Notes: a model not told the origin generated them from the letters alone. 25,351 nucleotides of DNA from Candidatus Hydrogenedentota bacterium (GCA_029974275.1 JARKSN010000011.1:1-25351); one strand, 5' to 3'. Numbered from the stretch's first letter, positions 353 through 14,119 are shown. Program-made: numbers and translations.

Positions 353-1366
353 GTGATCAAGGTGGGAATTGTTGGCGCCACGGGATATGGAGGCCGCGAG
401 CTGATTCGCTTGTTGGCGATGCATCCCAAGGCGCGTTTGGTCGAGGTCGCCTCGACCAGCGCTCCGGGCGAACGGCTGGATGCGGTGTTGCCGGCGTTTC
501 GGAAAACGACGGATTTGGTGTTTCAGCCGTTTGACGCGGAGGCGATGGCCAAGGCATGCGATGCTGTGTTTGTGGGAGTGCCCAGCGCGCATTCGATGCC
601 GATTGTGGCGGCGCTGCGCCGCGCCGGGGTCCGGGTGCTGGACATTGGGGCGGATTTCCGGTTGAAGGACCCTGTTCAGTGGACCAACTATTATAAGAGC
701 GAACACACGGCCCCGGAATGGCTTCCGGAGGCGACCTACGGCTTGGTTCCATATTACCGGGAGGCCTTGCGCGAGGCGACGTTGGCGGCGGTGCCGGGGT
801 GTTACCCGATCAGCGTCATCTTGCCGGTCCGCCCATTGTTGGACCAGGCGTTGCCATCGGTTCCGATCGTTGCCGATTGCATCAGCGGCATTTCCGGCGC
901 GGGACGATCGTTGAACGAGGCGTATCATTTCCCCGAGATGAACGAGAACCTTCGTGCATACAAGCTCGGGACCCATCAGCATATCCCCGAAATCGAGCAG
1001 GAACTCGGGGGAAGAGCGACGGTGCAGTTTACGCCGCATGTCGCGCCGTTGACCCGCGGCATTCTGAGCACGATTACAATTCGTTTCGCCGGAGACGTCG
1101 ACATCGAGGCGGCGTACGACCGCTATGCGCACGAGCCGTTTGTGCGCGTGCTGGGCGAGGGCGTTTTGCCGGAAGCGAAGCATGTGCGAGGATCGAATTT
1201 CTGCGACATCGGCTGGGTGAACGATGCGCGGACGGGCAATCTGCTCCTCGTCAGCGCGATTGACAATTTGATGGGGGGCACGGCGGGCATGGCGATTCAG
1301 TGCCTGAATGTGATGTTCGGCTTGGACGAACGGCTCGGCCTCGGGTTTGGGGGGATGACGCCATGA
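353..1366 (+). CDS. argC: N-acetyl-gamma-glutamyl-phosphate reductase
   Basis: Rossmann motif VGIVGATGYGG, catalytic PGCYP, SGISGAGR, HQHIPEI, FTPH and IDNLMGGTAG. GTG start with GGAGG RBS. Confidence 0.97.
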   Translation: MIKVGIVGATGYGGRELIRLLAMHPKARLVEVASTSAPGERLDAVLPAFRKTTDLVFQPFDAEAMAKACDAVFVGVPSAHSMPIVAALRRAGVRVLDIGADFRLKDPVQWTNYYKSEHTAPEWLPEATYGLVPYYREALREATLAAVPGCYPISVILPVRPLLDQALPSVPIVADCISGISGAGRSLNEAYHFPEMNENLRAYKLGTHQHIPEIEQELGGRATVQFTPHVAPLTRGILSTITIRFAGDVDIEAAYDRYAHEPFVRVLGEGVLPEAKHVRGSNFCDIGWVNDARTGNLLLVSAIDNLMGGTAGMAIQCLNVMFGLDERLGLGFGGMTP

Positions 1367-2568
1367 TGGCCATTGCAGGCGGGGTGACAGCCCCGAAGGG
1401 GTATCGCGCGGCGGGCGTGGCGGTAGGCATCAAGCCGAACAGCGCGAAGCTGGACTGCGCCCTTGTCGTGAGCGATGTGCCGTCGATTGTGGCGGGCGTT
1501 TTCACCACGAACGTGATGAAAGCGCCGTGCATTGCATGGAATCAACAGGTTTGCGCCCGGGGAATGGCCCAGGCCGCGTTCATCAATAGCGGCAATGCCA
1601 ACGCGGCCACGGGAGATCGCGGGGTTGCCGACGTGAAAGCGACGGCGGCGCTGGTGGCGGCGGGGTTGAACCTTGCGCCGGACCGCGTGTGCGTATGCAG
1701 CACGGGCGTGATTGGCGTGCCGCTTCCGATGGACCGTATCGGGAACGGCGTGCGCGGCTGTCTGGAATCGCTGTCGCCGACGGGCGGCGGAGACGCGGCC
1801 CGCGCCATCATGACGACGGACCTCGTGCCCAAGGAGCGCGCCGTCGAGATGCCGTTGTCGTGGGGCAAGGCGCGTCTTGGGGCGATCGCCAAAGGTTCGG
1901 GCATGATCGCCCCCAACATGGCGACCATGATTTGCGTGATCACGACCGATGTGAGCGTGGCCGCCGGGCCGTTGCGCGATGCGCTTCGGAAGGCCGTGGA
2001 CGCGTCGTTCAATCGCATCTGCGTGGACAACGACATGAGCACCAGCGATGCAGTGTTGTGTTTTGCGAACGGCCAGGCGGGGGGGGGCGCGTTGGCCCCG
2101 GGAACGGAAGACTACGAGACGTTTTCAGCGGCGTTGACGGGCTTGTGCAGGGATTTAGCGCAAGACCTTGTCCGCGACGGCGAAGGCGCGACCAAATTCG
2201 TCGAGATCGCGGTAAGCGGCGCGGATACGAACGAAAACGCCCAAAAAACGGCCCGGGCGATTGCGACGTCGGCGCTGTGCAAGACGGCCTTTTTCGGACA
2301 AGACCCGAACTGGGGCCGGATCGCGTGCGCGGCGGGCTATAGCGGCGTCGCGTTCGATCCGGCGAAACTATCCATCTGGATCGAAGACATCCAGCTCATG
2401 CGGGACGGCGCCGCGGCTGCGTTTGTCGAGGCGGAAGCGGCGGCATGCATGCAGCGCCCCGCGTTTCGCATACGGGTGAGTCTTGGCGATGGACCCGGCG
2501 AGGCGACGTATTGGACGTGCGACCTCAGCCACGACTATGTCGCCATCAACGCGGATTACCGAACCTAA
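1363..2568 (+). CDS. argJ: Ornithine acetyltransferase / N-acetylglutamate synthase ArgJ
   Basis: GVFTTN, NSGNANAATG, STGVIG, AIMTTD, KGSGMIAPNMATM (autocleavage Thr), DGEGATK, DPNWGR and C-terminal INADYRT. ATG overlaps the argC stop (ATGA); ATG at 1366 is an alternative start. Confidence 0.97.
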   Translation: MMAIAGGVTAPKGYRAAGVAVGIKPNSAKLDCALVVSDVPSIVAGVFTTNVMKAPCIAWNQQVCARGMAQAAFINSGNANAATGDRGVADVKATAALVAAGLNLAPDRVCVCSTGVIGVPLPMDRIGNGVRGCLESLSPTGGGDAARAIMTTDLVPKERAVEMPLSWGKARLGAIAKGSGMIAPNMATMICVITTDVSVAAGPLRDALRKAVDASFNRICVDNDMSTSDAVLCFANGQAGGGALAPGTEDYETFSAALTGLCRDLAQDLVRDGEGATKFVEIAVSGADTNENAQKTARAIATSALCKTAFFGQDPNWGRIACAAGYSGVAFDPAKLSIWIEDIQLMRDGAAAAFVEAEAAACMQRPAFRIRVSLGDGPGEATYWTCDLSHDYVAINADYRT

Positions 2569-3440
2569 TGAAACAGATGCAAGCGCTTATCGAGAAAGTG
2601 GCGACGCTCGTGGAGGCGTTGCCCTACATTCGCGAATTCGAAGGAAAGACCGTCGTCATCAAATACGGCGGCGCGGCGATGGAAAACCCGGTATTGCGGC
2701 ACAGCGTCGCCGAAGACATCACCTTGTTGAAGTACGTCGGCATGAACCCCGTCGTCGTGCACGGCGGCGGCCCGGAAATCAATCGCCGCCTCAAGCAATT
2801 GGGCGTCGAGGCGAAATTCCATAACGGCCTGCGCGTAACGGACGAGGAAACCATCCGCGTGGTCGAAATGGTGTTGTCGGGCACGATCAACAAGGAGATC
2901 GTGTCGCTGCTGAACATCGAAGGGGGCAACGCCGTCGGCCTGAGCGGCAAGGACGCGAACCTCATACACGCGAAACGGATGACGGCGGCCGACGGCGCCG
3001 ATCTGGGCTTTGTGGGGGAGATCACCGGCGTTCATTTTCAAATCCTCAACGTGCTGTGCCAAGCCGGAATGATCCCCGTAATCGCTCCCTTGGCGACCGA
3101 CGAGAAGGGCGGCACGTGGAACATCAATGCCGACACCGCGGCGGGCGAAGTGGCCGCGGCGTTGCAAGCCGAAAAACTTTTGTTTTTGACCGATACGCCG
3201 GGCTTGCTGCGCGATCCGAGCGATCCGGCGTCGCTCATTCAGCATGTGACCTACCAAGACATCGAGGCGTTGACGCGGGACGGCGTCATTTCCGGCGGCA
3301 TGATTCCCAAGGTGGAGGCCTGCCTCAAAGCGCTTGACTATGGCGTCAAGAAGACGCACATTATCGACGGGCGCGTGCCGCACGCCTTGTTGCTCGAAGT
3401 GTTCACCGTCCGCGGACTGGGCACCCTCGTCAGCCATTGA
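2568..3440 (+). CDS. argB: Acetylglutamate kinase
   Basis: LVEALPYI, VIKYGGAAM, VHGGGPEI, GLRVTD, NINAD, GGMIPKV and HIIDGR. ATG overlaps the argJ stop (TAATG). Confidence 0.97.
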   Translation: MKQMQALIEKVATLVEALPYIREFEGKTVVIKYGGAAMENPVLRHSVAEDITLLKYVGMNPVVVHGGGPEINRRLKQLGVEAKFHNGLRVTDEETIRVVEMVLSGTINKEIVSLLNIEGGNAVGLSGKDANLIHAKRMTAADGADLGFVGEITGVHFQILNVLCQAGMIPVIAPLATDEKGGTWNINADTAAGEVAAALQAEKLLFLTDTPGLLRDPSDPASLIQHVTYQDIEALTRDGVISGGMIPKVEACLKALDYGVKKTHIIDGRVPHALLLEVFTVRGLGTLVSH

Positions 3441-3473
3441 GACGGTTCCGGCCGGGTGCGGGAGGAAATCGCC

Positions 3474-4106
3474 GTGTCTTTGACCCCCATCGAAATCATC
3501 TGGCAAGGCGGGCCGCTGATGTGGCCCATCCTGTTGTGTTCGATCATCGCCCTCGCGATCACGATCGAGCGCTTGTATTCGCTGCGCAAGGCCGATGTCG
3601 AGATGCGCGAGTTCATGGACGCGATGCGCACCTTGTTGCGGCAAAATCGCGCGCAGGAAGCGGCGGACGTCTGCGAGACGACCGAGGGGCCGTTGCCGCG
3701 CGTGGCCAAGGCGGGCCTGCTCAAACAGGATCGCGGCAAGGCGGACATCCGTGCGGCCATCGAGGACGCCGGGCATCTGGAGGTGCCGCGCCTGGAACGG
3801 TATCTGGCGGGGCTGGCCACCTGCGCGAACGTCGCCCCGCTGTTGGGGCTCCTGGGCACGGTCACCGGCATGATCAAGGCGTTTCATAAGATAGCCGCGT
3901 TGCAGGGACAGGTGAATCCGGCGGACCTGGCCGAGGGAGTCAGCAACGCCCTGATCACCGCGGCGGCCGGCCTTACGGTGGCCATTCCGGCCCTGGTCGC
4001 GTACAACTATTTCGTGACGCGCGTGGACAACATGATCCTCGAAATGGAAGTGCGTTCGTCGGAATTGGTGGACTTGTTGACGCGAGGCCGCGATGGACTC
4101 GGATAG
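3474..4106 (+). CDS. exbB: MotA/TolQ/ExbB proton-channel family protein
   Basis: GGPLMWPILLCS..IER N-terminus, APLLGLLGTVTGMI and ALITAAAGLTVAIPA. GTG at 3474 is preferred because GGAGG lies at 3461-3465; the ORF track starts it at 3456. Confidence 0.93.
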   Translation: MSLTPIEIIWQGGPLMWPILLCSIIALAITIERLYSLRKADVEMREFMDAMRTLLRQNRAQEAADVCETTEGPLPRVAKAGLLKQDRGKADIRAAIEDAGHLEVPRLERYLAGLATCANVAPLLGLLGTVTGMIKAFHKIAALQGQVNPADLAEGVSNALITAAAGLTVAIPALVAYNYFVTRVDNMILEMEVRSSELVDLLTRGRDGLG

Positions 4107-4123
4107 GGAAGGCTTTTCTTTCC

Positions 4124-4567
4124 ATGGATTTCCGCAGAGGACGAAAACGAAAACTCGTGGCCGAGATGAGCGCAACGCCGATCATCAACGTCGTGTTTTT
4201 GCTGTTGGCCTTTTTTTTGCTCTCCTCCTCCTTTGTCACGCGCCCGCCCATTCTTCTCCACATGCCCGCAACGCAGGGAGCGCGGACAGTTGATCCGCAA
4301 GACGCCACGGTTTCCCTTCTTCCTCCGCCGGGCGGTCCCGACGACAAGGGCCCCGTTTTTTTCAACGACGAGGAAGTGGCGACGATGCGTCAGTTGGGGC
4401 AGTTGCTGACCGAGGCCCGGCAGCGCCGCCCGGAAATGGCGCTGATGATCCGCCCCGATGCCCGCGTGGACACCGGGCGGCTGGTCGAAGTCCTCGGCTT
4501 GGCGAACAGCGTCGGCATTGTCCGCTATCGGATTCCGGCTCAATCGCCGACGGAGACCGCCCCATGA
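4124..4567 (+). CDS. exbD: ExbD/TolR family biopolymer transport protein (TM Asp replaced by Asn)
   Basis: Basic N-terminus, TM segment TPIINVVFLLLAFFLL, periplasmic domain with IRPD..V..G.LVEVL...GI, directly after exbB. Confidence 0.88.
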   Translation: MDFRRGRKRKLVAEMSATPIINVVFLLLAFFLLSSSFVTRPPILLHMPATQGARTVDPQDATVSLLPPPGGPDDKGPVFFNDEEVATMRQLGQLLTEARQRRPEMALMIRPDARVDTGRLVEVLGLANSVGIVRYRIPAQSPTETAP

Positions 4568-4621
4568 GGCGGCGTCTTCCGGGAGAAAAACCCGCGATCG
4601 CGCCGCGGAGCGTCCCGCGCC

Positions 4622-5428
4622 TTGCCGGCTAGCCGCCCCATATGGCTTGCGTTGGCGGTGTCGGCCCTGCTGCATCTTTCCGCCGTCACCTTGTTTCGCA
4701 TCGTGGTCATGGCCCCGAGCGGGGGATCGCAGTACGGCGTTCTTGAGATTTTGCCCGCCGAGGACGGATCTCGCTTGGCGAAACTGGCGTTGTTTTCCGG
4801 AAATGACCAGCCGCTTCCGCCTTGGGAAGCCGATCGAAGCCCGTTCATGATGCCGGATTTTCACGCGGATGCGGAGGATGCAGGCCCCAAACTGCCCACT
4901 ATCCAATTGCCGCGCTTCGCGGCTGAGCCCATGGCCCCGCCCCGGCTCGCGACGGAGGATATCAGGCGAATCGATCGTCCCGCGGGCGAGCCGCGCGTCG
5001 AGCGATCGCCCGACTCTTGGGCGCGTTTGGGGCAAGGCGTCGAAGCGTTGCGGCTTGCCCTTTCGCGGGCGACGGGGCTGGAGGATCCGCGCATGCAGGA
5101 GGAGGGCCGCATCGCCATTGTGCAAACGCCGGCAGGGGTATCGGTCGACTTGACGTGGCTTTCGGATCCGCGCGATCGTGCGGTGACCTACTATCCCCGA
5201 TTGTCTGGCCTCTACGCCGTGAAGGATGCGGACCTCTCGCAGCCCGTGACGCTGCTGATAGCGGTCGACGCAAGCGGCAAGGTTGTTGAAGTGAAGGCTC
5301 CGCCGGAGGACGAGGCGGGAATCGTCAAGCTCCTGACGGACGCCCTGTGGAAATTCGAGTTCGTTTCGGCGTCCGAAGATATGCAACGGGCCGAAGTGAC
5401 GGCGTCCCTGGGAGCGCGCCGGCCATGA
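4622..5428 (+). CDS. TonB/TolA-like energy-transducer protein (divergent)
   Basis: N-terminal TM with SxxxH (VSALLHL), Pro-rich linker, C-terminal YP...VTLLIAVDASGKVVEV...ALWKFEF resembling TonB_C. Start uncertain (TTG with GGAG at 4607-4610). Confidence 0.7.
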   Translation: MPASRPIWLALAVSALLHLSAVTLFRIVVMAPSGGSQYGVLEILPAEDGSRLAKLALFSGNDQPLPPWEADRSPFMMPDFHADAEDAGPKLPTIQLPRFAAEPMAPPRLATEDIRRIDRPAGEPRVERSPDSWARLGQGVEALRLALSRATGLEDPRMQEEGRIAIVQTPAGVSVDLTWLSDPRDRAVTYYPRLSGLYAVKDADLSQPVTLLIAVDASGKVVEVKAPPEDEAGIVKLLTDALWKFEFVSASEDMQRAEVTASLGARRP

Positions 5429-5793
5429 TCCAGATCGAATTGGCCAGCGCGGTCTTGATGTATAGCGCCATCTTGTTGACGATCGTCGCTGGAATATGGG
5501 CGTACACCGAATTTTCCGTGCGGCGCGAACGGCGCTTTCTCGAGAAGCAGTACCATTGGCGGTGCGTTTTCTGCGGATTCACCTACCTTGATGAAAGCGG
5601 CGATCCCGTGTCGCAATGCCCACGATGCCGCAGTTACAATTCCGTCGAGGATGAGCGCGCCCGCGAAGTGCGTCCGATCGCCGTTTCGATCGCCGCCGAG
5701 AAGGGCCCCGCCCCGCCCGGAGAGGAGTTGCGCAGGAATCCCTCGCGCCGCAAACGGCCCCACCAGCGGCGGCGCGGCCCTCGCCGCAGGTAG
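5425..5793 (+). CDS. Hypothetical single-TM protein with CxxC...CxxC zinc ribbon and Arg-rich tail (122 aa)
   Basis: ATG overlaps the preceding stop (ATGA). Hydrophobic N-terminus, WRCVFCGFTY...SQCPRCRSYN and terminal RRNPSRRKRPHQRRRGPRRR. Confidence 0.8.
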   Translation: MIQIELASAVLMYSAILLTIVAGIWAYTEFSVRRERRFLEKQYHWRCVFCGFTYLDESGDPVSQCPRCRSYNSVEDERAREVRPIAVSIAAEKGPAPPGEELRRNPSRRKRPHQRRRGPRRR

Positions 5794-5846
5794 AAATAGC
5801 TGTTTCGAAAAGCCGCGAGATCGGCCACCGCCTGGCTAAACGGCGG

Positions 5847-7256
5847 CTAGTGTTTGTCCAGGTATTTGGCGACGATTCCCAGACTGCGCAACGAACCGCG
5901 GTGTTCCGGGTCGATGGCCAAACAGTTCAGAAAGGCTTCCCGCGCTTCTTCGTACTGGCCTTGGTTGAAAAAGACCACGCCGAGGTTGTTGTGCGCGGCG
6001 GCAAGCCCCATCGCCCCCGCCCGGCGGAAATGCGTCTTGGCTTCCTCGATCAAATGGTCGTAAAAAAAGAGTTCGCCGATCACGTTGTGCAGATTAGGGA
6101 GATCGTGACCTTGGCTCACCAGATCGAGCAGGGCCGCGCGCGCTTGGGGACGGCGTTCGAGACGAAGCATTTGGTGGACGTACAACTGCAGAGCTTCCAC
6201 GGAATCCGGCGCGGATTCGAGGGCGGCGCGCGATTCGAGGGCGGCTTCCTCAAGGCGGTTATCGCCTTCGAGCGCGAGGCTCAGGTGGCGATGGACCTCC
6301 GGCGCTTCCGGCGCATGTCGCTGCTCTTGTTGGAAGCATTCGACGGCGGTTCGCCACTGTTTTTCGGCCATCATGATGACGCCTAGGGCGCGCCAGGCTT
6401 CCGCGTACGCCGGGTCGAGCTCCAGGGCCACTTTGATGAAGCGCTTGGCTTCGTCGTTGCGGCCAAGCAGATGCAGCACGCCCGCCAGGTCTTTCAGCAC
6501 AACGGGGTTGGAGGGATCCCGTTTGAGCGATTCGCGATAGGCCGCCGCCGCTTGGGGATAGTTGCCGATCTCGGCGTATTGGTTGCCGAGTTCGGCGGCG
6601 GCGCGCGCGTCATCCGGGGCGGCTTGCAGCTTGTGCAGGCCAAGGCGGATGTATTGCTCCTGCTTCTGCCGGACGCGCTCCGATCCGCGTTCAAGCGGGT
6701 AGTGGTGAATGGGGATGGGGCAATCGACCACAACGATTCCGGCGCGTTCGAGCGACGCGACCACGCTTTCGTGCACGTTGCCTTCGAACGCGGCACCCCG
6801 GCGATTGGGAAACAGCCGCACCTTGGCGCTTGGGTACCATCCTGCGAATCCGCGCGCTATGGGATCGTCCGGGGCGCAGGGGTGAAATTCGCTGACGGAT
6901 CGGGTGTTGGTGTAGTTCCGTGTGACGAAGCGGTAGCAATTGTCCTGCGATCCCTGGGCCAGAGCGCGGATGGCGGGCAGATCGTCCGGAACGATGCGCT
7001 CGTCCGCGTCGATGATGAAAACCCAATCCGCGGTGCAGTGCCACAGCGACTCGTTGCGCGCGGCGGCGAAATCGTCGCACCACAGAAAAAAAGGCACTTT
7101 GGCTCCGGCGCTCCGGGCGATGGCGACGGTGTCGTCGCTCGATCCCGTGTCGACCACCACCAGTTCATCCACGAGCCCGCGCAGACCCTGGAGACATTCG
7201 GCAAGAAGAGCGCTTTCATCGCGGACGATCAAGGCCGCGGCAATGGTGCGCGCCAC
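5847..7256 (-). CDS. Family 2 glycosyltransferase with C-terminal TPR repeats
   Basis: LIVRDE, VVVDTGSSD, FAAARN, IDADE (DxD) and VHE, followed by multiple TPR-like helical repeats (LGNQY.., AWRALG.., AHNNLGVV..). Confidence 0.9.
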   Translation of the reverse strand: MARTIAAALIVRDESALLAECLQGLRGLVDELVVVDTGSSDDTVAIARSAGAKVPFFLWCDDFAAARNESLWHCTADWVFIIDADERIVPDDLPAIRALAQGSQDNCYRFVTRNYTNTRSVSEFHPCAPDDPIARGFAGWYPSAKVRLFPNRRGAAFEGNVHESVVASLERAGIVVVDCPIPIHHYPLERGSERVRQKQEQYIRLGLHKLQAAPDDARAAAELGNQYAEIGNYPQAAAAYRESLKRDPSNPVVLKDLAGVLHLLGRNDEAKRFIKVALELDPAYAEAWRALGVIMMAEKQWRTAVECFQQEQRHAPEAPEVHRHLSLALEGDNRLEEAALESRAALESAPDSVEALQLYVHQMLRLERRPQARAALLDLVSQGHDLPNLHNVIGELFFYDHLIEEAKTHFRRAGAMGLAAAHNNLGVVFFNQGQYEEAREAFLNCLAIDPEHRGSLRSLGIVAKYLDKH

Positions 7257-8148: not shown

Positions 8149-9771
8149 CTATTCTTGGCGCGGGGACCGGCGGTAGAGGTCCGCCACGTGCAGTTCCCCC
8201 CCCGGAACCCATGGCGGCGCGTGGTATAGCTGCCCCGGCACGAAATCATACTTCACCTCCCCGAGCCTGATCGTTGCTGGAGGAGGTGGAATGGCGTCGG
8301 GCTTGCTTCCATAGATGCGCATGAAGTAGTCCGGCTGAAACTTCCGAAAAACGGCGGCCTCATGGCGGCCATACACGTCCGTCATGTGGGCTTCGTGCAT
8401 TGCGACAAGCATTTTCGTGACTTCCGGCGAGACGAGCCCCGCCAAATCGATGACGCGGTTATTCGAGTAGTAGCCCAAGTAGCCTATCTCGCCTGCCGCA
8501 ATGGAATCGGTCGGCTGGGCATGGCGATTGAGCCACTCCGCGATTTGCATGTAAGGATAGGAACGGCGATCTCCCCCCTTCTCGAGCCAATGGACGGAAC
8601 GATCGCGCATGTTCTTCCAGGTTGGAGCCAGCGCCAAGGCAAAAAGCAGCGGCGCGGCGATCGCCGCCGCGATTGGGCGGCGCGACCACGCCCCAATCCT
8701 CTCGACGAAAAAGGCGGTTCCCAACGCCAACAGCGCGCACGAGAAGAACAAAACATGATACAAATACCACCAATATCCGGTGACTCCCAGGATCGTGTAT
8801 CCCAGCATTTGCCCCATGGACCAAGCGGCATATATCACGAAAGCCGGGCTCTTTCGGAAGGCGAGGAACGCACCCGCCGCCGCGAATGCCGGCACTCCGT
8901 AGGCCTGCCATGAATGACCCAAAATAATATCCCGGAACACATGAACCACCGTGGCTGTATAGGGCAAGGCCCCGGGCCACCCGATTTTGTGCTGAATCAT
9001 CTTGATTTTAAGGGTTTCGGGCAAGACGGCCCCGAAGGTGACGTAGGCGTAAACGGACCAGACGCCCAGCACAACTCCCAGTCCCGCGCTCATCGCCGCC
9101 AACTCCTTCAAGAGTGCGCGAAGTTCGGGCCCTCGGGGCATGACGCCGCTGCGAACGCTCACAAACGCCCGATACGCGAAAAGAAGCGGAAACAACAACG
9201 CTCCTTCTCCGCGAACCAGAAACAACAACGCGCAGCCTACGCCGGCAAGCGCGTAGAGGCCGCAAAAGTAAAGGCCAATGGTCAGGAGCAAGACGCATTG
9301 AAACGGCGCCATCTCGCCGCCCAGATAGGGAGCGTTCACGCACGTCATGGCAACGGCGAGGATCGCGCTATGCCACAAATCCAACCCAAAAGCCTTCCGA
9401 AACACGAAGACCGCCGCCATGCAGCCGCACCACGCCAGGCCCGACACCCAAATGGCCAGTCGGATCAGGTCGATCGAGGGAACCATGGCCTTGATGGCCG
9501 CGAACAGCAAGGCCGATAACGGGGAGGTGGTCCCGAGCGAGGCGGGCGGTTGATTGAACACGAATCCATTGCCCGCCGCCAGGTTCTTGGCGTAGGTCAA
9601 GGTAATCAGAATATCGTCGTTGACGTGCACGGGAGAACGGTAGGTTTGGAAAAGGGCCCAAAGCATGCTCGCCGCGAGCGCCCCGTAACAAATCCCCTTC
9701 AAAAGGATGCGCCGCGTCGGCGCGGCCTTTTTCATCTCCTTGACGCTGGACGACGCTCGCTCATCGGGCAT
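8149..9771 (-). CDS. Polytopic membrane GT-C-fold glycosyltransferase, AftB-like
   Basis: NDDILITLTYAKNLAAGNGFVFN..GTTSPL after TM1, LVRGEG, roughly a dozen hydrophobic segments and C-terminal GYLGYYS..RVIDLAGLVSP. ATG at 9771 has an AAGGAG RBS. Confidence 0.8.
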   Translation of the reverse strand: MPDERASSSVKEMKKAAPTRRILLKGICYGALAASMLWALFQTYRSPVHVNDDILITLTYAKNLAAGNGFVFNQPPASLGTTSPLSALLFAAIKAMVPSIDLIRLAIWVSGLAWCGCMAAVFVFRKAFGLDLWHSAILAVAMTCVNAPYLGGEMAPFQCVLLLTIGLYFCGLYALAGVGCALLFLVRGEGALLFPLLFAYRAFVSVRSGVMPRGPELRALLKELAAMSAGLGVVLGVWSVYAYVTFGAVLPETLKIKMIQHKIGWPGALPYTATVVHVFRDIILGHSWQAYGVPAFAAAGAFLAFRKSPAFVIYAAWSMGQMLGYTILGVTGYWWYLYHVLFFSCALLALGTAFFVERIGAWSRRPIAAAIAAPLLFALALAPTWKNMRDRSVHWLEKGGDRRSYPYMQIAEWLNRHAQPTDSIAAGEIGYLGYYSNNRVIDLAGLVSPEVTKMLVAMHEAHMTDVYGRHEAAVFRKFQPDYFMRIYGSKPDAIPPPPATIRLGEVKYDFVPGQLYHAPPWVPGGELHVADLYRRSPRQE

Positions 9772-9981
9772 ACAACGCTCCTTGTGCGACGAAACGCGAC
9801 GCGAAGGAAACAGGGTTTGGACGAAGCCAGCTCCTGTCATGCGGGTCCTATCGCCGTGTTTTCCTGGCCCTATGTTGATGGTTTCGCGAAAAAAATTTTC
9901 TGAGTCTGCCACAAGTCAAGAGCGCAAGACAACCGCCCGAATGCGATCCAATAGCGAGAAACCAAGAGGAGGCACCGAGGA

Positions 9982-10558: not shown

Positions 10559-13500
10559 TCATGGCGTGATGACGATAGGCGCCGGGGCGTCCGCAAACAG
10601 GCGTTTGATCGTCACGGCGCGCAGTTTCGGATCGTATAGCCAGCCGTTCGTCTGTTGCGCGAGGACGGCGCTGTCCTGCACGCGCGGTCCGGATCCGGTC
10701 ACAGCCTTGGGCTCGGCTATCGGCGCGACCAGAAGGTATCCTGCCCCCGGCGCTGACGCCTTGAGTTCCAGGTGAACGGCGCCGGCGGCATCCCGCGTCG
10801 CGCGAAGAATCGTCGCCGCCGCGTTTACGAGGATGCGGGAGCCATCGGGCGCTTCCACGCGCGCCCATGAGGGTTCCGGCGAGACGCCGTTAAGCCGCAG
10901 CCCGTTGGCAAGGATGTCCCCGGGATTGAGGTCGGCGGGATTGGGCGCGTTGCGAATCATGTCCCAGGAATCGGGAACACATCCTGTGCTGGGGCCGTCG
11001 GAATATTGCTGATGCATGGCGCTGCTTGTGATGCCTTGGGCAATGGCGCGCCAGGGAAACGAGTCGTCGAATTCGGCAAGGTCTTGCAAGGCGTATGCGT
11101 AGATCAAGCCGCTGCGTATGACGGGCAGACCGATCCAACTGCGATGAAAGAAGGTTGACCCCAGGATGCCTATGGAATTGTACAGCATTGCGGGGCGGCC
11201 TTCGGCGCTCCACGTGTAGAGGAAGGGCAGGCCGGTCCACGCCCAATACCGCGCGTGAACAAGGTGCGCGGGATCTCCCGTGAGACGATACGCCTCGCAG
11301 TAGGCGCGCACGGCTTGGGCGGACGCGATCATGTCGGGTTGACGCAACGGGCATTCCTGCGACTGTGCGCCGCGCGGCACGTCGTGCCGTTCCATCTGCC
11401 GCATGGCGTCGAGGCCTTGTCGCGCCAGTTCCGGGTCGCCCGAAAAGCGTGCGGCTCGAAGGACCAAAAACGACGCCTGTGCGGCTTGGGATAGGGTCGC
11501 GTCGCCCGACTCGCCCAGCGCCGCTGTTTCGGGGCTCTCGGGACGCCATACCCATGGGCCGTTTTCGCGTTGTGCGAGCGTGGCGCGGGCGGCGTCGCAC
11601 ATCGCGGCGATGTTTTCGGGCAGCCGCCCGAAGAGGAAAGGGGCCTCGCCAAGCAGGATGCGGGATCCGGCGCTTGTCCAAAGCCGGTCGGGGCCTTCCT
11701 TTTGGACGACATGGCCAATCGCCGCATCGATGCGCCGGGTCATTTCCATGTCCGTTTCCGCGTTCACGCCGGCGCGGCGGTCGAGCTCCAGCAATGCGGC
11801 GTAGCCCGGAAACGCGCCGGGCTTTCCGTCTTTGCACGCGGACCAGCCGGGAGGCGTTTCGTTCCATAGCGTGCGGAGATACGCTTCGCGGCACAACGCG
11901 CGCGTGTCGTTCCAGGAGCGGGGCGGTGCGGACGGTTCGGGCATGCCGAACGTCTCGAAATACTGTCGCATGGATTCCAGCAGAAGTCCGCAGGCGTGAG
12001 GAGCGGCGACGGGGTTGCCCAGATCGCCGGCGTGCCGGGCTTTGGGGTCGATCACGAGCAAACCGGCGATCTCGACATGTTCCGTGCGCTCCATGTGATG
12101 GGGGCGCACGCTTTCGATCGCGTTTTCCGGCACGTATTCGCCGCCGACCGACGGCACGAACAACGACAGGCGCGTGCAGCGCAGTCCCATGTCCGGAGCA
12201 GGGGACACAAACCGCGCGGCCGGATAGAACGTTTCATGGGCCCATGGCTGACGGATGTCCCACATCCATGCGATCAAGACATCATCGCCTTGCACCGCCA
12301 TGAGGGGCGTCGTGATTTTGTGGACCGCAGGAACGCGACGATCGTTATACGGTCGCGCCAGATCGCGTTCGGAAGAGGAACTCTCCTCCCGTTCCAGGAA
12401 CTCCAGCCCTGGAAAAAGCGCCCCGGTTTTGTTCGCGCCGAACGCGCGGTCTCCTGCAAGGATTTCGGGACCGGAGAACGCGACCAGGTCTGTGGGACGC
12501 GGCGCGCCGAAACGGCTGAGAATGCCGAATCGGCCGTTTTCCTTGTCGGGCGCGATGAGGATGCGAATCGGCCATGTCTCGCCGCCCGGCGCTTTCGCTT
12601 CGGCCCCGACGATCAGCAGGCGCCGGTCGTTTTCGTACGTGCATTCGTTGAGGCGGATGGCGAGTTCCTGCCGCGCGCCCGCCTCGTCGGATTGCGCAAT
12701 GACCGCACGCGCCAGTGGATACAGCGTTGCGGCGCGCTGCCACGTCGCGCCGTTCCAGGCTTCCGCGATGAGGTACGCGTGTTTGTCCTTGTCTGCAACC
12801 ACCATCAGTCTCGCCCACGGCGTGGCGACCATGGCCTGCGCATCGCCAAGGAGAAGATGCGTCTCCGCCTGGGAAGGCCTGTCGGAAGTGCGCGCCGGTT
12901 CGGGCGGAAAAACGTGCACGGCAAGGCGCCGGTCGTCATAGACCGGCGGAGCGCCTTCCTTCCAAACCAGCCGGGTCCTGATCGTCCGGTCTCCGGGAGA
13001 ACTGGCTTTCCGTCCGGGCCAATAGATGACGCGCCGCTCGCCCGGCTCCATGGGAGCGATTTCTTGAGACTCCTCGATCGGCTGCGTCAGAGATGCGTCC
13101 GAAGATTCCGGCGCGGCGGGGGAAGCGGCCTCCGTGTTTCCGGAGACATCGGTCAGCGCGGCAGTCGCCCCGCCAGGGTAGACGCCGCGGCCCGCATTGC
13201 GCACCGTCATCAAGACGTCGTAAGGCCTGTCCACGGTGAGGAACGGCGAGTCCAGCGCCACATCCTCGACGACGAGCTTCGCAGCGAAAGGAGCGATCGC
13301 CACCGATACCAGTCGCACATCGTTGGATGCAGGTTCCAGCGTGACCGGGGCGTTCTTTTTGAAGAAGATGGGGAGCCAGCGCTCTCCCTCGGGAAGGTCC
13401 GCTTCCTCGGTTTGATCGCCCATGCGCAGCGTCACATGAGCGGGAACGGCGCACCGCACCTGAGCCAACGCCACTCCTGTCTCCTCGCCCGTCGCGGCGC

Positions 13501-14119
13501 CGGCATTGTCGTGCGACGGCGGCAAGGAAACGAGCAGCGGATCGCCAAACACGGCCCAATCGTAGCGGCTGTCACCGTCGATGGCGTTTGTCCGGAACTC
13601 GATCCGCACGGTTTTGCCCACATACGCCTCCATGTTCACGGCGCGGCAGCGGTATGCGCTCGCCTTCAACTCCTCCTCGAAGACGGTTGCGCCCTCCACG
13701 GTGACGCGGAACCGCACGCCGTTGGGCGGGTTCTCGGCAACGCTCCACGGAACGCCCTCCCTGATTCCGATCCAAAACACCAAAAAAGAGCGTTTCTCGG
13801 GAGAAGATGGAAATATCATTACGCCGTCGTACGCGAGAACGGCGTCTTCCAACGAAGCGGTCGGGTGGAGATACACGCCGGGAAGCCGACTCGATTCGCG
13901 GCGCCCGTCCTTGATGCATCGAACCTCCCCGGCGTTCGTCGCCCTGGCCCCGTCAAAGGCATGACAAAAATCCAGGTCCACATTCGCGAAGTTTGCGCTC
14001 CCCTGCGCGGATCCGTCCGATACGTTGACATATTGAATCGTCGCAAAGGCCGGAATGGTCGCCAGAATCGTCCACACGGCCACGCTCGCCGCCATACGGA
14101 TGAAATTCGCCCGTGACAT
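10559..14119 (-). CDS. Large secreted multidomain protein (signal peptide, NPCBM/NEW2-like, CARDB/Ig-like, probable alpha/alpha toroid); putative carbohydrate-active enzyme
   Basis: 1186-aa ORF with Sec signal ending IPAFA; NGVRFRVTVEG..YVGKTVRIEF..DWAVFGDP; LMTVRNAG; helical C-terminal repeats such as RAARFSGDPELARQG and EAYRLTGDPAHLVHARYWA. Confidence 0.8.
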   Translation of the reverse strand: MSRANFIRMAASVAVWTILATIPAFATIQYVNVSDGSAQGSANFANVDLDFCHAFDGARATNAGEVRCIKDGRRESSRLPGVYLHPTASLEDAVLAYDGVMIFPSSPEKRSFLVFWIGIREGVPWSVAENPPNGVRFRVTVEGATVFEEELKASAYRCRAVNMEAYVGKTVRIEFRTNAIDGDSRYDWAVFGDPLLVSLPPSHDNAGAATGEETGVALAQVRCAVPAHVTLRMGDQTEEADLPEGERWLPIFFKKNAPVTLEPASNDVRLVSVAIAPFAAKLVVEDVALDSPFLTVDRPYDVLMTVRNAGRGVYPGGATAALTDVSGNTEAASPAAPESSDASLTQPIEESQEIAPMEPGERRVIYWPGRKASSPGDRTIRTRLVWKEGAPPVYDDRRLAVHVFPPEPARTSDRPSQAETHLLLGDAQAMVATPWARLMVVADKDKHAYLIAEAWNGATWQRAATLYPLARAVIAQSDEAGARQELAIRLNECTYENDRRLLIVGAEAKAPGGETWPIRILIAPDKENGRFGILSRFGAPRPTDLVAFSGPEILAGDRAFGANKTGALFPGLEFLEREESSSSERDLARPYNDRRVPAVHKITTPLMAVQGDDVLIAWMWDIRQPWAHETFYPAARFVSPAPDMGLRCTRLSLFVPSVGGEYVPENAIESVRPHHMERTEHVEIAGLLVIDPKARHAGDLGNPVAAPHACGLLLESMRQYFETFGMPEPSAPPRSWNDTRALCREAYLRTLWNETPPGWSACKDGKPGAFPGYAALLELDRRAGVNAETDMEMTRRIDAAIGHVVQKEGPDRLWTSAGSRILLGEAPFLFGRLPENIAAMCDAARATLAQRENGPWVWRPESPETAALGESGDATLSQAAQASFLVLRAARFSGDPELARQGLDAMRQMERHDVPRGAQSQECPLRQPDMIASAQAVRAYCEAYRLTGDPAHLVHARYWAWTGLPFLYTWSAEGRPAMLYNSIGILGSTFFHRSWIGLPVIRSGLIYAYALQDLAEFDDSFPWRAIAQGITSSAMHQQYSDGPSTGCVPDSWDMIRNAPNPADLNPGDILANGLRLNGVSPEPSWARVEAPDGSRILVNAAATILRATRDAAGAVHLELKASAPGAGYLLVAPIAEPKAVTGSGPRVQDSAVLAQQTNGWLYDPKLRAVTIKRLFADAPAPIVITP

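Follow-up and report, generated by a model that had tools for sequence, protein, structure and literature searches.

In the prevailing view no 5:2 stator-type motor can do without the transmembrane (TM) Asp of MotB, ExbD and TolR as its proton acceptor. According to the accessible parts of the published accounts, TolR D23 hydrogen-bonds to TolQ T145 and T178 and the SHLS motif of TolA contacts TolQ (PMC12583513), while MotB D22N mimics the protonated state (PMC9389320). For E. coli ExbD, the accessible part of a preprint reports that 18 of 19 substitutions of D25 are without activity, all but Glu abolishing it, and that D25N is inactive and dominant-negative and still cross-links to ExbB and dimerises; limited cross-talk between TolQR and ExbBD is reported there as well (bioRxiv 10.1101/2022.09.26.509584). 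Here we describe an ExbB-ExbD-TonB-like-zinc-ribbon gene cassette in a stretch of 25,351 nucleotides (nt) from a Candidatus Hydrogenedentota bacterium (GCA_029974275.1, JARKSN010000011.1:1-25351; this whole stretch is called the window), in which the conserved Asp of the ExbD-like protein is replaced by Asn. The four-gene cassette is real, conserved and uncharacterised. Its parts come from known families; what is new is that they are joined by a zinc-ribbon partner and that loss of the Asp is recurrent and selected. We give a probability of about 0.5 to the reading that the Asp-less cassette is retained for an assembly-dependent function uncoupled from the proton-motive force (PMF).

A preliminary description of this DNA, made from the sequence alone, did not recognise the combination as a described system. 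Our literature search, which left subscription-only literature outside its scope, likewise found no description of the cassette or of natural Asp-less ExbD/TolR orthologues.

The cassette and its substituted residues

The four genes lie on the + strand at 3456-5793 of the window, tightly packed right after argJ and argB, with spacers along the cassette of 15, 17 and 54 nt and then -4 nt. All four reading frames are intact and the final start/stop overlap is kept. The ExbB/ExbD/TonB-like/Zn-ribbon module of the preliminary description is thus present at the place and on the single strand given for it.

The first gene (3456-4106, +) encodes an ExbB/TolQ-like pentamer subunit of 216 amino acids (aa) when read from GTG 3456; the start is uncertain, and GTG 3474 was used in the preliminary description. 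The protein matches the profile of the MotA/TolQ/ExbB proton-channel family (PF01618, 3e-33, 114.7 bits against a cut-off of 22.9) and is 61-69% identical to 16 orthologues. Its best NCBIfam model is tolQ (TIGR02796; 112.9 against a cut-off of 221), with exbB (TIGR02797) at 62.6 against 206.2, both below their cut-offs. In a phmmer comparison with solved structures TolQ chains are also best (9e-15; ExbB 3.9e-10). Within the segment ALITAAAGL, Ala169 (codon GCG, 3960-3962, +) aligns by phmmer, and by alignment to TolQ and the orthologues, to the Thr of TolQ 'ALIATAIGL' (T178). The TM2 Thr (GLLGTV), equivalent to TolQ T145, is retained. The polar Thr ring made up of the T145 and T178 equivalents is consequently incomplete in the window protein. 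The Thr substitution had been described earlier at the T181 equivalent of ExbB; the numbering T148/T181 is that of the earlier account, and the equivalents verified here are TolQ/TolR positions only.

The second gene (4124-4567, +) encodes an ExbD/TolR-like dimer subunit of 147 aa, which matches the ExbD/TolR family profile (PF02472, 1.5e-19, 70.8 bits against a cut-off of 25.4). The NCBIfam tolR model scores 28.4, far under its cut-off. Since phmmer with the window ExbD alone found nothing in the PDB at E ≤ 1e-2 (0.01), a family profile was used instead, and it recovered TolR (6.6e-11) and ExbD (6.1e-10). By the same profile alignment the TM segment TPIINVVF places Asn22 (codon AAC, 4187-4189, +) in the column of TolR D23 and ExbD D25. 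The conserved TM Asp of the family is absent from the window protein, as the preliminary description had it. A further observation concerns the residue four positions after the Asp, one helical turn on: it is polar (Q or N, as in IDVVFQLL) in most cassette ExbDs, hydrophobic in the paralogues and in E. coli TolR, and L in the window ExbD.

The source is a draft genome of 342 contigs, and a sequencing or assembly error, or a chimeric contig in a metagenome-assembled genome, had to be considered. Contigs of four runs from four studies (2016-2023) span both codons, with no other letter at either position, and two of the four contig sets represent a strain with differences at about 20 further sites, which carries the same two codons. 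Because both codons agree in contigs from four studies, they are not an assembly error. The window stretch occurs in runs of many studies, with at least half of its words in 8 runs; the exact window ExbD protein is found on 5 contigs in the protein collection, and the window contig is fully syntenic with its relatives. An error of this kind is effectively refuted.

The third gene (4622-5428, +) encodes a protein of 268 aa, P3, for which no match was found in Pfam or NCBIfam. Its SxxxH anchor motif, which the preliminary description had taken as the retained TonB contact motif, is conserved: S14 and H18 are invariant in 19/19 sequences, and neither is among the conserved P3 columns altered in Asp-less lineages. 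An AlphaFold model from the 19-orthologue alignment (mean pLDDT 66.8) contains a TM helix (5-23), a low-confidence disordered linker, a helix (132-150) and a confident beta-rich C-terminal domain (163-263). In Foldseek the leading matches were TonB C-terminal domains, with E about 1e-2 and probabilities of up to 0.98. In VIA, 82 residues align with a TonB C-terminal domain at Z 6.8 and rmsd 3.8, and TolA-III follows at Z 6.1 and 5.3; these two folds fill the top 17 rows, with Z values below 8 that alone are no proof of homology. A P3 profile search against the PDB also placed TonB C-terminal domains on top, at only E about 0.1, and in the protein atlas the nearest foreign clusters carry the label TonB C-terminal, which we use as a lead only. 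A distant cassette homologue (locus L222) passes the Pfam model TonB_C (PF03544; 28.0 against 24.6). Judged by its modelled fold and its anchor motif, P3 is a divergent protein of the TonB/TolA family, probably with a TonB fold.

The fourth gene (5425-5793, +) encodes a membrane-anchored zinc-ribbon protein (Zn protein) of 122 aa. Residues from about 2 to 37 form its TM helix and residues 42-82 a CxxC...CPxC ribbon; it also has a conserved tail rich in Arg (RRNPSRRKRPHQRRRGPRRR). Its start had been placed at GTG 5347. Alignment with relatives makes ATG 5425 the most likely start, from which Zn and the P3 stop overlap by 4 nt: 114/114 loci have ATG or GTG at the aligned position, and the overlap of P3 stop and Zn start is -4 nt in 106/114. 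Searches of Pfam gave sub-threshold rubredoxin-like matches only, and in Foldseek the Zn model had only unspecific matches to zinc ribbons, IBR and ribosomal proteins (E ≥ 0.26). The positive-inside rule suggests that the short N-terminus faces outward, with the ribbon and the basic tail in the cytoplasm. Of 1.84 billion, a profile search retrieved 483 representatives at E ≤ 1e-3. About 17 have the full length and the basic tail, and the rest are tail-less proteins of 70-100 aa with TM helix and ribbon. One 189-aa representative (P0142), which joins an unrelated N-terminal part to the Zn ribbon and tail, is probably a gene-call or assembly artefact.

Conservation of the cassette and recurrence of the Asp loss

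Conservation was examined in relatives labelled Candidatus Hydrogenedentota/Hydrogenedentales. P3 is present in 40/41 related genomes. The Zn protein is present in 126/135 genomes of the phylum and in 0/6 and 0/1 genomes of families f10 and f15, respectively. Synteny was determined for 120 of the 126 Zn-positive genomes, leaving out three with the gene at a contig end and three more. At all 120 loci every cassette gene detected is on one strand. The order argB-ExbB-ExbD-P3-Zn is found in 102 and ExbB-ExbD-P3-Zn in 9; P3 was not detected by BLASTP in 4, and 5 are truncated. An argB fragment precedes ExbB in 104/120. In f10 (genome G033) and f15 (G042) the order is argJ-argB-ExbB-ExbD, with the Asp, followed by neither P3 nor Zn. 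Since both genes are missing there though ExbB-ExbD persist, P3 and Zn come and go together. The gene right after argB-ExbB-ExbD in G033 (L146:2855-3544) looks by eye like an ECF-type sigma factor.

In the window, argJ (1300-2568, +; PF01960 ArgJ, 2.3e-146) and argB (about 2565-3440, +; PF00696 AA_kinase, 2.4e-52) are housekeeping context within this conserved synteny and stand outside the machine itself. In a scan of 1100-6100 for promoters and terminators, hits were as numerous as in shuffled sequence and no operon boundary emerged.

We also collected 29 metagenome loci of the short Zn relatives by a search with 6 closer sequences; 13 had too little upstream DNA. In all 16 loci with at least 1000 bp upstream, ExbD and/or ExbB lies upstream of the Zn relative on the same strand, with E-values in the ExbB hidden Markov model (HMM) search ranging from about 1e-25 (loci ending at a contig edge) to 1e-90 (full-length genes). 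A P3-like gene stands between the motor genes and Zn in most of the 16, and the Asp is retained in 14/14 of these loci. Their GC content is 35-48%, with two loci at 71-73%, compared with 62% in the window. From this composition and from atlas labels (Omnitrophota, a lead only) the metagenome loci appear to lie outside Hydrogenedentota. At two of the distant loci a TPR protein of about 820 aa is encoded directly upstream of ExbB (L219:229-2694 and L222:176-2656). The synteny of the Zn gene with the motor genes, proposed as a check in the preliminary description, holds in both the 120 related loci and the 16 informative distant ones.

The Asp column was then compared among 115 orthologous ExbDs. 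It holds D in 107, N in 5 and T in 3, and only N or T replaces the Asp. Asn occurs in the window genome (G000), in G118, alone among the 6 species of its genus, and in G048, G050 and G051, which belong to one genus, g48; Thr occurs in G025 and in G011 and G110, which come from one genus of 5 species. A tree of argB, ExbB and Zn, with ExbD excluded, yields five independent Asp changes. It was built with FastTree and its branch support is modest; the well-supported branches force all five. A second sample, the best 120 of 309 public ExbD clusters, contains D in 115 and N in 5, including one sequence type absent from the genomes. As a control, 60 other ExbDs from 52 high-quality genomes of the order and the 3 paralogues of the window genome were inspected, with reading frames chosen by HMM. 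The Asp is present in 63/63. One of the 60 is a cassette orthologue, which leaves 62 paralogues, and the set includes paralogues of the Asp-less genomes G011 and G025.

The T178-equivalent column of the 115 ExbB orthologues is T in 114 and A in the window protein, and the TM2 Thr is invariant; the paralogous ExbBs of the window genome keep both Thr. The degenerate channel which the preliminary description had attributed to the system is accordingly no trait of the cassette as a whole, and the covariation of D-to-N with T-to-A that it had asked about is not general, the pair occurring together in the window genome only. A T-to-A change in the ExbB 'TT' pair as a general sequel of Asp loss was rejected because g48 alters the first Thr, which is Ala in E. 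coli TolQ too, and only the window protein is without the T178 equivalent. This pair is altered in two Asp-less lineages, at the first Thr in g48 and at the second in the window. Besides this pair, two conserved columns change in more than one of the Asp-less lineages: ExbD T36S in 3 and ExbB T50M in 2. No new acidic residue was found in the TM segments of the Asp-less ExbDs or in the conserved ExbB columns examined.

Selection on the Asp-less genes and the function retained

To the extent that it can be measured, the Asp-less genes are under purifying selection. dN/dS was measurable in two Asp-less clades: in the N-bearing genus it is 0.14-0.24 for ExbD, 0.10-0.19 for ExbB and 0.12-0.15 for argB, and in the T-bearing pair it is 0.07 for ExbD. 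For 27 independent nearest D-D pairs the median for ExbD is 0.084 (range 0.02-0.31). As the Asp-less values (0.07-0.24) fall inside this range, the Asp-less genes are under constraint similar to that on the Asp-bearing ones. Strains of the window's species differ by 3 synonymous and 0 non-synonymous changes in ExbB, by 1 and 0 in ExbD (X4/X5 strain) and by 2 of each in Zn. Run X1 adds two non-synonymous differences in ExbD, which are seen only in its contigs of low depth and are possibly errors.

Lineage-specific and sister-specific changes were also counted with one representative per Asp-less lineage and pooled over the five lineages. The Asp-less side has an excess in ExbD (107 versus 62, p=7e-4), P3 (165 versus 117, p=0.005) and ExbB (115 versus 80, p=0.015), and no excess in Zn (67 versus 68) or argB (43 versus 32). 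These counts point to a partial relaxation that is limited to the motor parts and P3 and does not extend to Zn or argB.

One alternative is decay in progress. If the system were dispensable in this species, the two substitutions would be the first steps of pseudogenisation. Both key residues are altered in one genome; among 29 genera of the family the window ExbD diverges most, with ExbB and P3 near the bottom and argB and Zn average; and P3 shows many non-synonymous differences between strains. Such a course is nevertheless hard to reconcile with four intact frames and a preserved start/stop overlap, with the same codons in studies that span 2016-2023, with 4 synonymous and 0 non-synonymous differences in ExbB and ExbD together in the X4/X5 strain, with the dN/dS of both measurable Asp-less clades, or with a relative rate against the nearest sister that is not significant. 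We consider decay in progress improbable, the least likely of the biological alternatives. The preliminary description had stated that it would be overturned by orthologues with Asp and Thr retained, which is what most relatives have, and had linked such an outcome to strain-specific decay or sequence error; on these two causes the agreement of four studies, the five losses and the purifying dN/dS speak otherwise.

We propose instead that assembly is what has been retained. The cassette would form a 5:2 ion-driven motor, a TolQ/ExbB-type pentamer with a TolR/ExbD-type dimer, with P3 as its own periplasmic arm and with the small Zn protein in the inner membrane. The latter, translationally coupled to P3, would present its ribbon and, in Hydrogenedentota, its Arg-rich tail to the cytoplasm. 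Synteny, co-loss with P3, translational coupling and the predicted topology all suggest such a role, in which the Zn protein would contact both P3 and the motor. In most carriers the canonical proton path of TM Asp and Thr ring is intact, and PMF would presumably be converted into movement of P3. In the window's species the Asp has given way to Asn, a classical mimic of protonation, and Ala takes the place of the Thr equivalent to T178. From the behaviour of the E. coli mutants ExbD D25N and TolQ T178A/TolR D23A and the retention of SxxxH, the window complex should assemble with P3 yet ignore the PMF, its motor probably being locked in a protonation-mimic, PMF-unresponsive state. The assembled ExbB-ExbD-P3-Zn complex would keep a second function independent of proton flow, for example as a scaffold or stabiliser of P3 and Zn or as a passive trans-envelope link, and this function would suffice in the window's species and at least four other lineages. 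Replacement by N or T only, the constraint on the genes, the slight loosening of the motor without that of Zn, and the Asp-keeping paralogues fit such an assembly-dependent function. The purifying selection on Asp-less orthologues, sought as a dN/dS check in the preliminary description, likewise fits the idea put forward there of a complex that assembles but is no longer a proton motor.

Several observations weigh against this proposal. The loss of the PMF response is an extrapolation from mutants of E. coli. Retention of the Asp in 107 of 115 orthologues is odd if proton flow is dispensable, and 8/115 versus 0/62 is a small contrast among related genomes that are not independent observations. 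The window lineage alone is not significantly faster than its sister in ExbD (24 versus 14, p=0.14), and in ExbB the sister is faster (17 versus 31). The next ExbD is at most 51% identical, so that selection after the D-to-N change is not measurable over this long branch. Finally, P3 differs between strains at 7 non-synonymous codons versus 5 synonymous sites, which could mean that P3 is losing constraint.

The same selection data would also fit a motor that still works, in which protons or other ions take a non-canonical route over the Asn or Thr and neighbouring polar residues. For ExbD, ExbB and P3 without the Asp, purifying selection lies within the Asp-bearing range; the replacements are only the polar N and T, never A, G, V, H, Y or E; and side changes recur, namely ExbD T36S on the same TM in 3 lineages and changes of the ExbB TT pair in 2. 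On the other side, all E. coli ExbD D25 substitutions except E abolish activity in the accessible account (bioRxiv 10.1101/2022.09.26.509584), no acidic residue has been gained in the segments inspected, and the window protein has lost a Thr of the polar ring as well, so that a ligand was removed rather than gained. We regard a working motor as unlikely, if the strongest of the alternatives that concern the mechanism.

A further possibility, raised for a borrowed ExbD in the preliminary description, is that the window ExbB or P3 uses an Asp-bearing ExbD, or a whole ExbB-ExbD unit, from another locus, which would then provide the energy. The window genome, rated 100% complete in its 342 contigs, has three ExbB/ExbD sets and two MotAB pairs. 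The other two sets, ExbB-ExbD-ExbD on contig C193 and ExbB-ExbD-TPR-VWA on C191, have the Asp and Thr intact; 52/52 high-quality genomes of the order have 2-5 ExbD matches; and the limited TolQR/ExbBD cross-talk in E. coli, as far as the accessible text describes it (bioRxiv 10.1101/2022.09.26.509584), offers a precedent. Rescue of this kind leaves the purifying selection on the Asp-less ExbD unexplained, however. Paralogue numbers are alike (4 in the Asp-less G000, G011 and G025 versus 3-5 in others), and D25N is dominant-negative in E. coli in the accessible part of the same source. We find rescue by paralogues doubtful, slightly more so than a working motor.

One orthologous group with at least five Asp losses to N or T, under selection and with all sampled paralogues Asp-bearing, offers a natural experiment on the non-proton roles of such complexes. 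More tentatively, the Asp-less ExbB-ExbD-TonB-like-Zn complexes could represent a natural 5:2 class retained without proton coupling, in which N or T mimics a site that is always protonated and makes the unit either a passive swivel or scaffold or a differently coupled device, with the Zn protein and its Arg-rich tail as a cytoplasmic effector or regulator. In that case a stator Asp taken to be 'universally essential' would not be needed for every function on which selection can act.

Genome setting and comparison with Tol, Ton and other stator-type systems

Outside the cassette, the window contains on the - strand a gene (5847-7256), convergent with the cassette, whose product combines a family 2 glycosyltransferase domain with a long array of TPRs, and two open reading frames of 587 aa (8149-9912) and 1186 aa (10559-14119) without a Pfam match at E ≤ 1e-5. 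Profile scans bear out the earlier statement that the window has no TonB-dependent transporter (TBDT), tolB or pal. Because TolB, Pal, CpoB and two more TonB/TolA-like proteins are encoded elsewhere in the genome, this absence says little. TolB (375.7 against 343), Pal (136.3 against 125.35) and CpoB (96.3 against 90.1; all NCBIfam) are on other contigs, and TolB is found in 135/135 phylum genomes, with scores over the cut-off in 116. The two TonB/TolA-like proteins match PF13103 (TonB_2). One is encoded directly upstream of tolB (L042:4004-4975, +, contig C121) and has an SFILH anchor and a KPEP-repeat linker; the other is beside ffh. With Pal and CpoB beside gyrA on another contig, Tol-Pal is spread over at least three loci. 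Plug (PF07715), TBDT barrel (PF00593) and TonB_C gave 0 matches in the window genome, which for a draft falls short of proof of absence. The three models thus match nothing in a genome that has three ExbB/ExbD sets and as many TonB/TolA-like anchors.

At the C191 locus (L033:4764-10161), ExbB-ExbD precede genes for a TPR protein of 788 aa and for a VWA protein. The TPR protein resembles that of the distant cassette loci (788 versus about 820 aa) and may link the two types of locus.

The argB-linked ExbB-ExbD could be the TolQ-TolR of this dispersed Tol-Pal system, with P3 as its TolA. Its best NCBIfam and PDB matches are TolQ and TolR; TolB, Pal and CpoB are present while Plug, TBDT barrel and TonB_C are without match; TolB is universal in the phylum genomes; and the argB-ExbB-ExbD pair exists even in families without P3 and Zn. 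Yet its scores are far under the tolQ and tolR equivalog cut-offs, and the other two ExbBD sets could serve equally as TolQR. The PF13103 protein upstream of tolB, with its SxxxH motif and KPEP linker, is a better TolA candidate, and P3 has no significant profile similarity to it (hhalign of the P3 profile against the genome's two PF13103 proteins, E 0.12 and 0.13). P3 as the only TolA candidate was rejected when this gene was found. We hold the identification with TolQ-TolR-TolA to be possible, though clearly short of probable. The cassette motor may serve a dispersed Tol-Pal system as its TolQR, P3 being an additional arm, or it may belong to a separate Ton-like system.

If the more tentative reading of a natural class retained without proton coupling is correct, the cassette would be a new trans-envelope system beside Ton, Tol, Mot, Agl, Gld and Zor. 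It is widely conserved in uncultured wastewater and sediment lineages seemingly without TBDTs, which points to a Ton-like output not yet described. Like Zorya ZorAB, AglRQS and GldLM, it appears to be a 5:2 stator-like unit re-used with novel partners. Unlike Zorya, it stands in the housekeeping argJ-argB context and not in a defence island; PADLOC gave only marginal ZorA matches for ExbB (E 0.005, 13 bits) and none for the other three proteins.

With ExbB-ExbD-TonB the cassette shares a three-part architecture, a P3 C-terminal domain closest to those of TonB by fold, and a distant homologue that passes TonB_C. It differs in that no TBDT was found in the window genome, in that P3 matches no TonB Pfam model, in its Zn-ribbon partner and, in this species, in the lost Asp. 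The resemblance to E. coli TolQ-TolR-TolA lies in the succession of ExbB- and ExbD-type subunits and a TM-anchored SxxxH protein with a C-terminal domain of probable TonB/TolA fold, in motor proteins that match TolQ and TolR best, and in the TolB, Pal and CpoB of the genome. The differences are the sub-cut-off equivalog scores, the lack of adjacent tolB and pal, the second TolA-like gene by tolB, the fourth, zinc-ribbon gene, and N and A at the D23 and T178 equivalents in this species. The residue changes themselves lie at the same aligned positions as those of the laboratory mutants ExbD D25N, TolR D23A, TolQ T178A and MotB D22N. The mutants, as the accessible parts of the sources present them, are engineered losses of function, whereas the changes in the cassette are natural, fixed and recurrent in five lineages, and were followed by purifying selection.

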